Shown: positions 34,525 to 39,136 of the stretch, one piece after another
Numbering within the stretch: position 1 is the stretch's first letter
Layout: every line of letters starts with the position of its first letter
Source of the DNA: Acidobacteriota bacterium
GTDB taxonomy: Bacteria > Acidobacteriota > Thermoanaerobaculia > Gp7-AA8
Direction of reading: 5' to 3'
DNA: 64,000 nucleotides
Assembly: GCA_019244185.1 (NCBI GenBank)
Contig: JAFATB010000009.1
Coordinates: forward strand, 25,218 to 89,217
Notes under the pieces: generated by a model
Databases searched by the model: none
The model's input: the letters and a program-made list of their open reading frames with translations, nothing else
Told to the model about the DNA's origin: nothing
Position numbers and translations under genes: made by a program

Positions 34525-34926
34525 CTAGCTCCCCGTGCATGCCCGGATGTCGTCCATCAGCCGGGCCATGTCGAACGGCTTCGCGTGGATCTTGTAGACC
34601 GGCACGTCGAAGCGGCGGAGGATCTCGCTCTCGGGGACGGCGGACGCGATGATCGTGCACTTCAGCATGTCCGGATGGTGCGCGCTGAGGTGGCGCAGCA
34701 CGCCGAAACCGTCGACGCGCGGCATCATCAGGTCGAGCACGATGACGGAGTAGTCGTTGTGCGCGTCGATCTGTTGAATCGCCTCTTCGCCGTCGCGCGC
34801 CGTATCGACGTCGAGGTCCTGCCGGGAAACGACTTTGGACAGCATGGCGCGGATCGGGTCGTCGTCGTCGACGACCAGCGCGCGTTTTCTCTCGACCACG
34901 GATCCCGCAGCATTCAAAAAACGCAC
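34525..34926 (-). CDS. Single-domain response regulator
   Basis: LVVDDD, LDLMMP, KPF. Confidence 0.88.
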   Translation of the reverse strand: MRFLNAAGSVVERKRALVVDDDDPIRAMLSKVVSRQDLDVDTARDGEEAIQQIDAHNDYSVIVLDLMMPRVDGFGVLRHLSAHHPDMLKCTIIASAVPESEILRRFDVPVYKIHAKPFDMARLMDDIRACTGS

Positions 34927-35196
34927 CTAGGCCAGCGCGGAGATCAGCGCCACCGGCACGAGCACGATGGCCGCGAGGACGATCAGCGGCACGACGACGG
35001 CCACGATGAGACTCACGACGGCGATGCCGGCGACGAGCAGGAACGCCATCTTGACGATGAACAGCACGGCGAAGAGCGGCAGCAGCAGGAGCTTGAGCGG
35101 CAGCAGCGCGAGCTTGATCGTGAACTTCAGCAGCGCCGCGCCGAGCGCGAGGACCACCACGCCGGCGACGAAGACGAAGACGAGAAAAGCGAACAT
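34927..35196 (-). CDS. Small hydrophobic membrane protein
   Basis: GGAGG SD upstream; 89 aa, almost entirely hydrophobic. Confidence 0.7.
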   Translation of the reverse strand: MFAFLVFVFVAGVVVLALGAALLKFTIKLALLPLKLLLLPLFAVLFIVKMAFLLVAGIAVVSLIVAVVVPLIVLAAIVLVPVALISALA

Positions 35197-35253
35197 GGTC
35201 GTTCCTCCCGCTTCGTTACTACGGCGCGCGGCCTCGCGAGTTTCCGCCGATGA

Positions 35254-36336
35254 TCAGCCGGCGTACGCCGCCGCAGCACCGTGGCGCTCGCCGACGTACA
35301 CCGACTGCGGCCGGATGATCCGCCCGACGCGCCGCTGCTCGAATGCGTGCGCGAGCCAGCCCACCACGCGCGCGACGGCGAACGTCGGCGTGAAGAGCGG
35401 CACCTCGAGCCCGAGGCCGTGCAGCAGGAGCGCGGTGTAGAACTCGACGTTCGTCTGCAGCTTGCGTCCCGGCTTGTGCTCCTCGAGCAGCCGCAGCGCC
35501 GTCGCCTCGACGTCGCGCGCGAGGTTGTAGAGGCTCATGTCGCCCGCGCGCGTGAACATCCGCTCCGCCGCCGCCGCGAGCACGTCCGCGCGCGGGTCGC
35601 GCACTTTGTACACGCGATGCCCGAAGCCCATCAGCCGTTCGCCCGCCGCGATCTTCGCGCGCAGCACGCCTTCCGCGCGCGAGGCCTCGCCGATCTCGAA
35701 GACCATGTCGAGCGCCGGCCCCGGCGCGCCGCCGTGCAGCGGACCTTTGAGCGCGCCGACGGCGCCCACGATCGCGGAGACGAAATCGGATCCCGTCGAC
35801 GCGACGACGCGCGCGGTGAACGTCGACGCGTTGAGCCCGTGATCGACGACGGTATTGAGATACGTTTCGAGCCCGCGTACGAGCTCCGCGTGCGGCTCGC
35901 GTCCCGTGAGCAGGTAGAGGTAGTTCGCCGCGATGCCGAGCTCCGCGCGCGGCGCGAGCGGTTCTACGCCATGAAGAAGACGCCAGTACGCGGCGACGAT
36001 GACGGGGAAGCTGCCCGCGAGCATCCGCGCCGCGTCCGCGTCGTCTTCCGCGCTCAACGTGCCCGCGGCCATCCGCAGCGCGTCCATCACCGGCACGCGC
36101 TTCGGTGCGACGTCGCGCAACAGCTGCAGCGTGTGCGGCGGAAGCGCGCAAACAGCCGGTTTTCCCTCGAAACCAGCCAGTCCCCACAGCAGCGACGCGA
36201 CGTCTTCGAAACCCCAAGACGCCAGCTCTTCGACCGCGTATCCGCCGATCACGAGCTCGCCCCGCTCGCCGTCGACCATGCTCAGCCGCGTCTCCGCGGC
36301 GACGATTCCTTCCAGTCCGTTGTGCACTTCGTTCAT
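35254..36336 (-). CDS. Citrate synthase family protein (B. subtilis CitA-like, NVEFY)
   Basis: GLEGIV, DHGLNASTF, GPLHGGA, GFGHRVY, TNVEFY. Confidence 0.9.
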   Translation of the reverse strand: MNEVHNGLEGIVAAETRLSMVDGERGELVIGGYAVEELASWGFEDVASLLWGLAGFEGKPAVCALPPHTLQLLRDVAPKRVPVMDALRMAAGTLSAEDDADAARMLAGSFPVIVAAYWRLLHGVEPLAPRAELGIAANYLYLLTGREPHAELVRGLETYLNTVVDHGLNASTFTARVVASTGSDFVSAIVGAVGALKGPLHGGAPGPALDMVFEIGEASRAEGVLRAKIAAGERLMGFGHRVYKVRDPRADVLAAAAERMFTRAGDMSLYNLARDVEATALRLLEEHKPGRKLQTNVEFYTALLLHGLGLEVPLFTPTFAVARVVGWLAHAFEQRRVGRIIRPQSVYVGERHGAAAAYAG

Positions 36337-36342
36337 GCACCG

Positions 36343-36389
36343 AAACTAGGTTTGGTTCCGTGGGATGTCAACATTGATTGTACAATCAA
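36343..36389. promoter_or_regulatory. Divergent promoters plus perfect 16-bp palindrome TTGATTGTACAATCAA
   Basis: Minus strand: TTGACA (36371-36366)-N17-TAGTTT (36348-36343)-N6-ATG. Plus strand: TACAAT at 36381-36386, 6 nt before ATG. Palindrome at 36374-36389. Confidence 0.8.
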
Positions 36390-36392
36390 CCA

Positions 36393-37574
36393 ATGGCTCG
36401 CAGGCCACAATGGATTGACGCACGCGAGGCGACCCGTCTCCTCGGCGTGAGCCGCGCGACGTTGTACGCGTACGTCAGCCGCGGCTACCTGCGCTCGGAG
36501 CCGGTGCCCGGCAAGACGCGCGAGCGCCGCTACGCGCGCGAGGATGTCGAACGCCTGCGCAGCCGCGCCGAGGAGCGGCGCAATCCGGAGAAAGCAGCGG
36601 AACATGCGCTGCGCTGGGGCGTGCCGGTGCTCGAGTCGTCGATCACGCTGATCGCCGACGGGCAGCTCTACTACCGCGGCCACGACGTCGTGGAGCTCGT
36701 GCATACGCGATCGCTCGAAGAAGTCGCGGCCCTCGTCTGGACCGGCTCGTTCGAAGCGGACATCTTCGATACGCCGCTCCACGTCGTCGGTGGCGGCGCC
36801 GCGCACGATCTGCCCTTCATCAGCCGTGCACAATCCGTCCTCCCGATCGTCGCCGCGCGCGATCCGCTCTCGTTCGACCTCCGTCCGAAAGCGGTCGCGC
36901 AGAGCGGCTGGCGCATTCTCAATCTGCTCACCAGCGTCGCCGCTGAATCGCAAACGCTGGAGGCGACGATCGAGGAGACGCTCGCACGCCGCTGGGCGCC
37001 GAAACAGAAACGCGCCGCGGACCTCATCCGCGCGGCGCTGATCGTCTGCGCCGATCACGAGCTCAACGTCTCCGCCTTCACCGCGCGCTGCGTCGCCTCC
37101 GCCGGCTCGAATCCGTACTCGGTCGTCGTCGCCGGCCTCGCCGCACTCGAAGGCACGAAACACGGCGGCGCCACCGCACGCGTGGAAGCACTCTTCGACG
37201 AGCTCCGCCGCGCCCGCGATCTCCGCCGCGCTCTCGCCGAACGCCTCCGCCGCGGCGATCCCATCGAGGGCTTCGGCCACCCGCTCTATCCCGAAGGCGA
37301 TCCACGCGCACGCCTGCTGTTCGATCTCCTCCCGAAGTCGAAGGAGCTGACCTTCGCCCGCTCTCTCGCCAACGCCGCGAGCACGGTCCTCGGCGAAGAA
37401 CCCACCGTCGATTTCGCCCTCGTCGCCTTCGCCCGTGCGTTGGGACTCCCGCACGGCTCCGCCCTCACCCTCTTCGCCATCGGCCGCACGATCGGCTGGA
37501 TCGCCCACGCCATCGAGCAATACGAGCAAAACGTGATGATTCGGCCACGTGCTCGGTACGTGGGGCCGCGGTGA
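36393..37574 (+). CDS. Excisionase/MerR-like HTH fused to a citrate-synthase fold
   Basis: N-terminal WIDAREATRLLGVSRATLYAYVSRG; DHELNVSAF, KHGGA, GFGHPLY, TVDFAL. Confidence 0.88.
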   Translation: MARRPQWIDAREATRLLGVSRATLYAYVSRGYLRSEPVPGKTRERRYAREDVERLRSRAEERRNPEKAAEHALRWGVPVLESSITLIADGQLYYRGHDVVELVHTRSLEEVAALVWTGSFEADIFDTPLHVVGGGAAHDLPFISRAQSVLPIVAARDPLSFDLRPKAVAQSGWRILNLLTSVAAESQTLEATIEETLARRWAPKQKRAADLIRAALIVCADHELNVSAFTARCVASAGSNPYSVVVAGLAALEGTKHGGATARVEALFDELRRARDLRRALAERLRRGDPIEGFGHPLYPEGDPRARLLFDLLPKSKELTFARSLANAASTVLGEEPTVDFALVAFARALGLPHGSALTLFAIGRTIGWIAHAIEQYEQNVMIRPRARYVGPR

Positions 37575-37770
37575 GGGATGACGATGGGGACGACGAAGGG
37601 CCTCCGGCGGGCCGGCGCGGCCGGCACCGCTAAGGGCTTAGCCGAGACGCACGTGCGGCTGCAGTCAACGACGTTAACCGCGACCGCACGTGCGTCTCGG
37701 CTAGGCCCTTAGCGCCGCCGGCCTCGCCGGCCCGCCGGAGGCCTCTCGTCGTCCCCGTCGTCATCCCCTC
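37573..37770. repeat. About 198-bp imperfect palindrome between convergent genes
   Basis: Arms of about 97 bp (gagggatgacga...gtcaacg / cgttaac...tcgtcatcccctc), 1-nt centre. Confidence 0.92.
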
Positions 37771-39136
37771 AGAGCCGCGACACGTTGTCGAAGTACTTGA
37801 CGAACGACACGATGCCGCCGCTGGCTTGGGGCCAGTCGTAGTTCTCGTTCGGGGCGTGGTAGCCGTGTTCGGGGAGCGAGAGGCCGAGGAACATCACCGG
37901 CGTCTTGAGCACCTTCTCCATCGAGATCACGGCGCCGATCGAGCCGCCTTCGCGGACGAAGACCGGCTCGCGGCCGAACGCGAACTTCATCGCGTCGCGG
38001 ACCGCGTCGGCGAGAGGACCACTGGTCGGCGCCTTGTAGGGCCACATCGAATTCTCGACTTCGATTTTGACGTCGGGATTGCGTTCTTTCACGAACGCGC
38101 GGACCAGCTTCTCGATCTTGCGCGGGTCCTGATTCGCGACCAGGCGGCAGGAGATCTTCACCTCGGCGCGCGGCGGGATGATCGTCTTGATGCCGGGGCC
38201 GGTGTAGCCGCCGACGAGGCCGTGAACCTCGAAGGTCGGCAGCGCCCAGATGCGTTTCATCACGTCGACGGGGTCGTCGCTGCGGATCGACTTGAAGAGG
38301 TGATCCTTCTTGAACTGCTTGATCGTGAAGCCGGACGCCTTGAAGTCTTCGATCTCGCGGCGGCTCGGCGGGACGACGTCGTCGTAGAAGCCTTTGAGCT
38401 TCACCTTCCCGGAGCGCGCGTCGAACATCTCGGAGACGAGCTGCATCAGCTCCGCGAGCGGATTGCGCGCGGCGCCGCCGGTGACCCCCGAGTGCTGATC
38501 GGTCGTGCCGGTTTCGAGCGTCAGCGAAAAGCCCTGCAGGCCGCGGAGGCCGGCCGGGCAGGCGGGGCGTTGGCGGGAGACCCAGATCGTGTCGGAGACG
38601 AGGATGTGATCCGTGGCCAGCGTCTTCGCGTGCGTCTTGATGCCGCTCTCGAAGTTCGGCGAGCCGATTTCCTCTTCGAGCTCCCACAGCACGCGGAGGT
38701 TCAGCTTCACGCCGGCCTCGCGCGCGGCGCGGATGCCGTAGAGCGCGCTGAGCGCGGGACCTTTGTCGTCGGTGGTGCCGCGGCCGAAGTAGCGGTCGCC
38801 TTCCTTCGTGAAGACGAACGGCTCCGTGTTCCACGGCTCGGTCTCGCGCGACGCGGGCTGCACGTCCATGTGGTTGTACATCGTCAGCGTCGGCGCTTTC
38901 GGATCGACGTCGAAGCGGCCATGGATGAATGGATATCCATCCGTCTCGAGAATGGCCGGCTCGCCGCCGGCGTCGCGGATCAGCTGCGCGGCCGCCTCGG
39001 CGCAGCGGCGGACGTCGCCGGCACGTGCGGGCTCGGCGGAAACGGACGGGATCTCGACGAGCGTGCGGAGGTCTGCTTCGAAACGCGTGCGCTCGTTCGC
39101 GGCCCATGCCGCGAGCGATTTCTTGTCGATCTTCAT
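37769..39136 (-). CDS. M20/M25/M40 metallopeptidase (dipeptidase-like)
   Basis: YNHMDVQP, GRGTTDDKG, EEEIGS, REGGSI, HAPNE. Confidence 0.92.
   Translation of the reverse strand: MKIDKKSLAAWAANERTRFEADLRTLVEIPSVSAEPARAGDVRRCAEAAAQLIRDAGGEPAILETDGYPFIHGRFDVDPKAPTLTMYNHMDVQPASRETEPWNTEPFVFTKEGDRYFGRGTTDDKGPALSALYGIRAAREAGVKLNLRVLWELEEEIGSPNFESGIKTHAKTLATDHILVSDTIWVSRQRPACPAGLRGLQGFSLTLETGTTDQHSGVTGGAARNPLAELMQLVSEMFDARSGKVKLKGFYDDVVPPSRREIEDFKASGFTIKQFKKDHLFKSIRSDDPVDVMKRIWALPTFEVHGLVGGYTGPGIKTIIPPRAEVKISCRLVANQDPRKIEKLVRAFVKERNPDVKIEVENSMWPYKAPTSGPLADAVRDAMKFAFGREPVFVREGGSIGAVISMEKVLKTPVMFLGLSLPEHGYHAPNENYDWPQASGGIVSFVKYFDNVSRL

Follow-up and report, generated by a model that had tools for sequence, protein, structure and literature searches.

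What is a citrate synthase (CS) fold doing behind a DNA-binding domain? The question is raised by a locus in a 64,000-nucleotide stretch of DNA from an Acidobacteriota bacterium (Thermoanaerobaculia, Gp7-AA8; GenBank assembly GCA_019244185.1, contig JAFATB010000009.1, positions 25,218 to 89,217), referred to below as the window. A gene for a CS of 360 amino acids (35254-36336, minus strand), the presumed regulated gene, and a gene for a 393-residue protein in which a helix-turn-helix (HTH) domain is joined to a whole CS fold (36393-37574 from its ATG, plus strand), the presumed regulator, diverge from a 56-bp spacer (36337-36392). This spacer holds a candidate operator, a perfect 16-bp palindrome, TTGATTGTACAATCAA (36374-36389, no strand assigned), with the half-sites TTGAT and ATCAA centred 11 bp apart. 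A preliminary description of this DNA had proposed that the fusion is an enzyme fold repurposed as a sensor, and the coordinates, genes, spacer, and palindrome that it gave were all found as described. The analysis reported here points to a dimeric one-component transcription regulator, a reading to which we assign a rough probability of 70%, and the module is most likely an unstudied metabolite-sensing switch made from a Krebs-cycle enzyme.

The fusion protein

The open reading frame of the fusion in a program-made list opens at a TTG at 36378, and the ATG lies at 36393. Residues 7-55 (36411-36557, plus strand) form a winged HTH that matches the Pfam family HTH_17 with 31.7 bits (cut-off 27) and MerR_1 with 25.4 bits (cut-off 21.6), and residues ~76-393 (36618-37571, plus strand) constitute a complete CS fold, the presumed ligand sensor, which matches Citrate_synt (PF00285) in two stretches with an E value of 4e-65; these are the only Pfam matches. 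Together with the motifs KHGGA, GFGHPLY, and PTVDF, they bear out the earlier view of an excisionase/MerR-type HTH joined to a whole CS fold.

An AlphaFold2 model of the fusion (predicted local distance difference test, pLDDT, 93.6; predicted template-modelling score, pTM, 0.83) comprises the HTH, a long helix, and the CS fold. Residues 7-48 adopt a strand-helix-helix-hairpin arrangement and are followed by helices at residues 49-63 and 65-75, a short low-confidence linker, and a CS fold of 318 residues. The closest structures found by Foldseek are Mycobacterium tuberculosis methylcitrate synthase (3hwk), M. tuberculosis CitA (8s9d), Salmonella PrpC (3o8j), and a Thermotoga CS (2p2w), with template-modelling scores of ~0.7 over ~350 columns. 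When the first 82 residues were modelled alone (pLDDT 81), the HTH domain came nearest to BldC (6ama), the Xis protein of mycobacteriophage Pukovnik (4j2n), RacA, and the DNA-binding domains of SoxR, MtaN, HiNmlR, and CarH. Across 68 N-terminal domains that share 42-82% identity, the recognition helix, TLYAYVSRG, does not vary, residues T23, Y25, Y27, V28, S29, R30, and G31 being the same throughout.

A conserved candidate operator upstream of the fusion gene

The divergent spacer has a GC content of 0.446, compared with 0.673 for the window. With up to three mismatches allowed, the palindrome has one match in the window, and shuffled sequences had a mean of 0.02, 2 of 100 containing a match. 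Five perfect 16-bp palindromes occur in the window, of which TTGATTGTACAATCAA is the sole AT-rich one (GC 0.25), and a perfect palindrome by itself is unremarkable there; what lifts this one beyond chance is its conservation in relatives.

This conservation was assessed in 92 related loci, comprising 4 from genome contigs, 8 from a scan of the phylum, and 80 from metagenome contigs (the best 80 of 595 confirmed matches), of which 15 were dropped because the contig ended within the gene or less than 150 bp upstream, leaving 77. The preliminary description had predicted a TTGAT-N6-ATCAA motif in homologous divergent pairs, and the prediction held: 72 of the 77 loci have an exact TTGAT-N6/7-ATCAA (41 with N6 and 31 with N7) no more than 200 bp upstream of the fusion start, against a background of 2 sites in the other 347,207 bp of the same loci, and the five remaining loci carry versions with one mismatch or odd spacing. 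It weighs against the regulator reading that the best-80-of-595 sample contains close kin, so that raw counts overstate independence, and the motif was hence also counted by cluster: at 70% identity, 45 of 49 clusters have it, and at 60%, 30 of 33. Named carriers of the site belong to four phyla and include three metagenome-assembled genomes of Thermoanaerobaculia, one of Latescibacterota, plasmid At of Agrobacterium fabrum C58 (between ATU_RS25365 and ATU_RS25370), and a plasmid of Deinococcus sp. QL22.

The consensus reads tGTCAAtaTTGATt....AATCAAtat in the N6 group and ttgaTCAATCTTGATT.....aATCAATATGa in the N7 group. The half-sites are fixed and the four to five central bases are free (GTAC, GTAG, CGGC, AGTT, AAAT, and others), which is the signature of a protein-binding site rather than of a promoter box or an RNA element, and the invariant operator half-site is matched by the invariant recognition helix of the fusion. 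In the N7 loci, the wing is often shorter by one residue and the linker is reduced as well, with L072, L073, and L079 as exceptions. An RNA element or terminator was considered for the palindrome and rejected, given its place between divergent starts, a centre devoid of stem-like covariation, and the fixed outer five bases of each arm.

In the 5.3-Mb genome, the TTGAT-N6/7-ATCAA motif occurs once, at the window locus, so that a regulon defined by perfect sites would consist of the divergent pair alone. This bears on the alternative that the palindrome serves another regulator, for example one of the FNR/CRP type, while the HTH of the fusion does something else. The half-sites are indeed the same as those of the FNR/FixK box, the consensus of which is TTGAT-N4-ATCAA. 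However, the spacing is N6 in the window and N6 or N7 in 72 of the 77 loci, never N4; a single site in the genome is unlike the sites of a global regulator; and the site accompanies the fusion gene in four phyla and beside six kinds of partner gene. We regard this alternative as extremely improbable.

Layout of the control region

On the CS side of the window, a -35-like TTGACA (36366-36371, minus strand) lies 2 bp from the palindrome, where it also forms a third TTGA-type element abutting the operator, and is followed after 17 bp by a -10-like TAGTTT (36343-36348, minus strand), itself 6 nt before the ATG. On the fusion side, a -10-like TACAAT (36381-36386, plus strand) lies inside the operator, 6 nt before the ATG. 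These hexamers are to be taken as look-alikes, with presumptive positions relative to the transcription starts: only 3 of the 6 positions of TAGTTT agree with the -10 consensus, and a good -35 upstream of TACAAT is absent. The positions of the palindrome 2 bp upstream of TTGACA and over TACAAT were confirmed, whereas the role of TACAAT as a general -10 element was not, as this hexamer is kept only in the close relatives L002 and L003 and the operator centre is free elsewhere.

Across the family, no more than 6 nt separate the palindrome from an in-frame ATG of the fusion in 39 of 73 cases, including the window; the distance is 7-20 nt in 18 and longer in 12, no ATG being found in 4. Cases with 6 nt or fewer leave no room for a ribosome-binding site, which would place the operator on the fusion's own promoter or start, and the fusion transcript is probably leaderless. 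Towards the partner gene, GTCAA[TC] or GATCAAT stands at a fixed distance of 1-2 bp from the palindrome in both operator groups, and at least 5 of 6 positions match TTGACA in 32 of 49 loci with a CS partner. In 22 of these 49 loci, all of the N6 group, TTGAC[AG] is followed by a 16-18-bp spacer and TAnnnT, with the start codon 5-8 nt further on in 16 of them, and the CS transcript of this group looks leaderless. The N7 loci are without this arrangement.

Two departures from the usual layout were observed. At L014 (G134:C3), ~100 nt of GCTAGCG-type tandem repeats separate the operator from the fusion start, unlike the tight layout elsewhere. In N7 loci such as L089, L096, L101, L103, and L106, which belong to a group of 39-42% identity, an 8-bp palindrome, TTGATCAA, preceded by a conserved TCGACAG, replaces the TTGACA-like element, and the CS gene has a Shine-Dalgarno-like AAGGAG leader and is not leaderless. 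The control region of this group was rebuilt, with the operator kept.

Counted from the presumed transcription starts, the operator centre would lie at ~-11.5 of the fusion gene and ~-45.5 of the CS gene. Placement directly upstream of a -35 element is common for class II-type activators of divergent genes, and the fixed 1-2 bp between the operator and the -35-like element in both operator groups would suit a dimer that is centred at ~-45.5, recruits RNA polymerase to the CS promoter, and represses its own gene. Promoters that need an activator, however, usually lack consensus elements such as those seen here, where the -35-like element matches 5-6 of 6 consensus positions in 32 of the 49 CS-partner loci and a 17-bp spacer with TAnnnT occurs in 22; moreover, with the 16-17-bp site only 2 bp away, a protein bound there would cover the -35 if its footprint were of normal size. 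Activation of the partner, as the preliminary description had it, is thus possible, if doubtful.

Genes facing the fusion

The CS encoded in the window matches Pfam Citrate_synt with an E value of 2.5e-100 and the NCBIfam model PRK12350 with 346.4 bits, above its 332-bit cut-off, which makes it a CitA-type minor CS. At the position of the catalytic base it reads TNVEFYT, where most CSs have NVDFY. Its closest solved chain is 2c6x ('citrate synthase 1'; E = 1.3e-80), which we take to be Bacillus subtilis CitA, and NVEFY is aligned in both. In the related loci, TNVEF[YF] is found in 38 of 44 full-length partner CSs, 5 others having Asp and 1 being unmatched. The earlier assignment as CitA-like with NVEFY therefore stands, whereas its reading of NVEFY as divergence does not, since both 2c6x and these 38 partners carry Glu; the residue is a trait of the clade, common to a solved CitA-type enzyme, and a sign neither of decay nor of divergence. 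A third CS-fold gene in the genome, of GltA type, lies on another contig (G000:C26:420515-421600, L005; 453 bits to Citrate_synt in a 437-aa frame) and is likely the housekeeping CS, which would make the CS/fusion pair of the window accessory.

The directly facing gene was scored in 69 loci with at least 700 bp upstream. It encodes a CS fold in 52 (51 by tblastn and L086 by Pfam, with L069 and L086 of GltA type), the usual partner being a Glu-type CitA-like CS. In six loci (L055, L057, L060, L063, L095, and L098), it encodes an HMGL-like condensing enzyme that is below every NCBIfam cut-off and nearest to homocitrate or isopropylmalate synthase, and the fusion on the Deinococcus plasmid is likewise paired with an HMGL-like gene. 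The other facing genes encode a cupin (L084, L097, and L109), a family III coenzyme A (CoA)-transferase (L076 and L077), methylisocitrate lyase (prpB) followed by 2-methylcitrate synthase (prpC) (L094 and L116; 522.8 bits in L094, cut-off 353), or an unknown small open reading frame followed by 2-methylcitrate synthase (prpC) (L083 and L093; 720.4 bits in L083, cut-off 550), and two loci (L011 and L104) have some other gene. At L011 (G056:C27, 2688-3215), from a genome of the same family, the partner CS has been lost, the operator and TTGACA are intact, and the response-regulator gene found beyond the CS in the window is next. The constants are therefore the fusion and the operator, and what varies is the gene opposite, which encodes a condensing enzyme for citrate-type acids or belongs to related acyl-CoA or organic-acid metabolism, as expected of a dedicated regulator and hard to square with an obligate pairing of two CS subunits.

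Such a pairing had been put forward in the preliminary description as an alternative, with the fusion and the neighbouring CS forming a heterodimer. Joined to the CS through the CS dimer interface, the fusion would tether that enzyme to DNA or build a composite active site with it, and control would hinge on the partner. In favour of this, the two proteins are co-inherited and have the same dimeric fold, and each departs in one respect from the canonical residues (Glu in the partner; Pro at H+1/H+4 of the GFGH motif in the fusion). Against this, the facing gene is not CS-fold in at least 13 of the 69 loci, the Deinococcus plasmid being a like case, and the operator is still kept; L011 retains the fusion and operator after loss of the partner; the palindrome calls for two HTHs, as present in a homodimer but not in a 1:1 heterodimer; and the Glu variant also occurs in the stand-alone CS 2c6x. 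A heterodimer cannot be the general arrangement, and we consider it quite improbable.

The active site and possible catalysis

In an alignment of 80 representatives of the fusion family (mean column identity 40%), H257, H296, and D340, which we take to be the catalytic His-His-Asp from their roles in characterised CSs, are kept in 73, 76, and 71 representatives, respectively, D340 being replaced by Glu in 5 more. The residues presumably binding oxaloacetate, assigned in the same way, are equally well preserved (H222 in 76, R305 in all 80, R365 in 78, and R386 in 77), and the fusion in the window has all seven. Fusions and partner CSs have 37 conserved columns in common and differ in 20. A consistent difference concerns the GFGH motif, which in the fusions tends to GFGH-P-LY-P, H+1 being Pro in 43 of 80 and H+4 in 67 of 80; CitA- and GltA-type partners read GFGH-R-[VI]Y-[KR], in which the basic residues at H+1 and H+4 presumably contact the phosphates of CoA, and prpC-type partners read GFGHPVYT.

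As the complete set of catalytic and oxaloacetate residues is kept, the fusion may still be an enzyme, and to call it an enzyme fold repurposed as a sensor, as was done at first, possibly understates the case, because these residues are kept family-wide. A trigger enzyme, meaning a catalytically active citrate or 2-methylcitrate synthase with the added ability to bind DNA, would let regulation read turnover (flux) rather than occupancy, an idea that overlaps with the regulator reading and differs from it by claiming catalysis. It is favoured by the His-His-Asp and oxaloacetate Arg residues kept in 71-80 of 80 representatives, by the 37 columns conserved jointly with true CS partners, by nearest folds that are methylcitrate and citrate synthases, and by the GFGHP common to the fusion and prpC-type partners. 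On the other side, the fusion is below every NCBIfam CS cut-off (TIGR01800, the best, 163.6 bits against 421.3; PRK12350, 155.8 against 332), and the basic residues of GFGH-R-VY-K/R, which the partners keep as R and K/R, are replaced by Pro in the proportions given above.

The nearest studied genes are probably Caulobacter citB and citC, which the part of the source covered here describes as two adjacent minor CS paralogues beside a housekeeping CS (eLife 2020, PMC7083601); rhizobia, according to the same part, often carry three CS paralogues. CitB complements an Escherichia coli gltA mutant and CitC does not (PMC7083601, in the part covered), which would speak against a trigger enzyme only if CitC belongs to the fusion family. 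Both are treated there as putative enzymes, the covered text having 0 matches to 'helix-turn-helix' and neither DNA binding nor an operator (PMC7083601). Among the best 120 relatives of the Agrobacterium protein, no Caulobacter name was found. Taken together, a trigger enzyme is a tenable minority view. Its fullest form, a live (methyl)citrate synthase whose open-closed cycle gates DNA binding and which would thus be a flux-sensing factor setting the level of a second condensing enzyme, is rather unlikely.

A model for regulation by the fusion

Under the preferred reading, the fusion acts as a homodimeric regulator of the divergent pair. The CS fold is, to our knowledge, dimeric in all known members, and we infer from this fold and from the operator how DNA would be bound. 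A CS-fold dimer would present two N-terminal MerR/excisionase-type winged HTH domains, which would bind TTGAT and ATCAA on the same side of the DNA helix, the half-site centres being 11-12 bp apart. With 3 nt between the operator and the fusion start, and with the -10-like box inside the operator, binding would shut off the fusion gene; autorepression follows from the position of the operator, provided that the protein binds. Since the operator also abuts TTGACA of the divergent CS gene, the same bound dimer would control that gene as well.

The CS body, with its entire active site, would serve as the sensor, in which a ligand drives the open-to-closed domain rotation and so resets the HTH pair. 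Because the active site is kept, the obvious ligand candidates are oxaloacetate, with or without acetyl- or propionyl-CoA, and citrate or 2-methylcitrate. As for the sign of control, our guess is that the fusion represses both promoters until substrate releases it, and the accessory CS would thereby be made when oxaloacetate or acyl-CoA accumulates; repression of the partner is favoured by the conserved consensus -35 and its near-consensus spacing.

Several observations weigh against this picture. The complete catalytic residue set suits a working enzyme equally well as a sensor. The fold matches of the HTH domain are weak (E values of 0.022-0.25, the best, at 0.022, having a root-mean-square deviation of 1.8 Å over 51 columns). 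A position of ~-45.5 relative to the CS gene is typical of activators, and the sign of control could be opposite to that proposed. A generic promoter scan of 34800-37900 called no sigma-70-type promoter, and a search of sequencing runs found no RNA run carrying the locus, 6 DNA runs being listed, of which 3 may be sources of this DNA. The failure of CitC to complement (PMC7083601, in the part covered) also counts here, with a weight conditional on membership of CitC in the fusion family, and is silent on DNA binding.

Distribution and evolution of the fusion family

A protein search against 1.84 billion cluster representatives (50% identity) returned 7722 relatives of the fusion at E ≤ 0.001 and 1367 at E ≤ 1e-30. 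The best 150 relatives listed are 40-58% identical, most aligning from about residue 5 and thus spanning the HTH. All seven representatives scanned have HTH_17 and Citrate_synt, with HTH_17 under the Pfam cut-off in three. In databases, relatives are named 'citrate synthase', 'citrate synthase family protein', 'citrate/2-methylcitrate synthase', or 'helix-turn-helix domain-containing protein'. Within the phylum of the window, distribution is patchy: a near-full-length fusion occurs in 9 of 401 genomes (G000, G040, G056, G070, G083, G134, G014, G176, and G268), a tally that takes in the unpublished genome G024, scored as lacking the fusion. Additionally, 83 plasmid records carry a relative, from Agrobacterium, Roseomonas, Paraburkholderia, Ensifer, Burkholderia, Deinococcus, Azospirillum, and others.

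A quick maximum-likelihood tree was built from 42 fusion CS domains (half of the fusion rows being omitted), 43 partners, and the GltA-type CS of the genome. All fusion CS domains fall on one side of a branch with a Shimodaira-Hasegawa-like approximate likelihood-ratio test value (SH-aLRT) of 100, apart from the partners and the housekeeping CS, and the same loci group together in the fusion and partner subtrees. The single split and the matching subtrees indicate that the fusion is an old, separate lineage that travels with its partner, rather than a recent copy of it; this co-inheritance of the pair is directly observed.

Some members depart from the standard architecture. P0215 (792 aa) seemingly contains two tandem HTH-CS units in one frame, with HTH matches at residues 2-48 and 410-441, and P0210 (764 aa) has ~377 extra N-terminal residues without a Pfam match ahead of its HTH-CS part; these may be real fusions or artefacts of gene calling. 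Genome G134 has a second fusion-like match on another contig, within a 678-aa open frame. In L002 and L003, the fusion gene has an N-terminal extension from ACGGACAACGG-type repeats right after the start codon, within the first ~40 nt, and the fusion gene of the window lacks this extension.

Relation to known regulators

A literature search found no description of the fusion family as a regulator, subscription journals being outside its coverage, in agreement with the preliminary description, which knew of no experimental characterisation of the module. In B. subtilis, as Jin and Sonenshein are said to have reported in 1994, citA has a divergent regulator gene, citR. The window resembles citA/citR in that a minor Glu-variant CitA-type CS gene has a dedicated adjacent regulator gene. 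However, CitR is of the LysR type and lacks a CS fold, whereas the regulator of the window is itself a CS paralogue.

Regulators built on enzyme folds, as well as trigger enzymes, are known from several families, including BirA, PutA, NadR, ROK, and MocR/GabR/PdxR, the last combining a winged HTH with a whole aminotransferase fold; we know of no case in which the CS fold is used in this way. Like MocR/GabR, the fusion carries an N-terminal DNA-binding domain on a whole, dimeric enzyme fold with the site for cofactor or substrate preserved, and regulators of that type are usually divergent from the gene they control and autoregulated. The likeness is in logic only, since the HTH is MerR/Xis-type and not GntR, and the enzyme fold is that of CS and not a fold-type-I aminotransferase.

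With respect to the MerR family, the fusion has the N-terminal MerR-type winged HTH, with MerR_1 and HTH_17 above their cut-offs. A classical MerR operator lies within the over-long 19-20-bp spacer between the -35 and -10 of the regulated promoter, whereas the palindrome described here lies upstream of the -35-like TTGACA of the CS gene, the spacer of which is 17 bp, and over the -10-like box and start of the fusion. Furthermore, the helices at 49-63 and 65-75 lead into a 318-residue CS fold instead of a coiled coil and a small effector domain. The fusion is thus neither a classical MerR regulator nor a member of the MocR/GabR, BirA, or PutA classes. Like CarH, of the CarH/LitR type, it couples a MerR-type DNA-binding domain to a sensor outside the MerR architecture. 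On their DNA, CarH and BldC sit head-to-tail on direct repeats; by comparison, the site here is an inverted repeat, the sensor has a CS fold rather than the B12-binding domain of CarH, and the fold matches to these proteins are weak. The Salmonella regulator PrpR, a sigma-54 regulator of the methylcitrate operon, senses 2-methylcitrate. The fusion stands in the place of a prp regulator where it is divergent from prpB-prpC (L094 and L116) or from an operon ending in prpC (L083 and L093), and it belongs to a protein family unrelated to PrpR.

Neighbouring genes

Downstream of the CS gene of the window, on the minus strand, are genes for a very hydrophobic 89-aa protein (34927-35196) and for a receiver-only response regulator of 133 aa (34525-34926), with a terminator-like hairpin (34939-34922) between them. 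Both genes may be co-transcribed with the CS gene. The response-regulator gene is syntenic in L001, L011, and L039, and the 89-aa protein was seen only in L010.

On plasmid At of A. fabrum C58 (L119, 8090-13176), the pair adjoins genes for an ECF sigma factor, a FecR-like protein, a TonB-dependent siderophore receptor, and an iron-siderophore ABC transporter. Because citrate chelates iron, a link of this pair to iron uptake is possible; the proximity may also be coincidence.

Implications

Control of entry into the Krebs cycle is textbook biology, yet the large fusion family has been annotated only as 'citrate synthase (family protein)'. What the comparisons suggest is a large unstudied family of enzyme-derived regulators, not a new principle. 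The hypothesis is testable with one protein and one oligonucleotide, the operator being a short and nearly invariant sequence that occurs once in the genome. If members of the family are regulators, genome annotations and metabolic models over-count citrate synthases, the purpose of 'redundant' CS paralogues in soil- and plant-associated bacteria becomes testable, and a new enzyme-derived sensor domain for oxaloacetate, citrate, or acyl-CoA would be available for biosensors. If, instead, the fusion proves to be a flux-sensing enzyme, it would represent a trigger enzyme of wide occurrence, spread over several phyla, at the point where the Krebs and methylcitrate cycles are entered.

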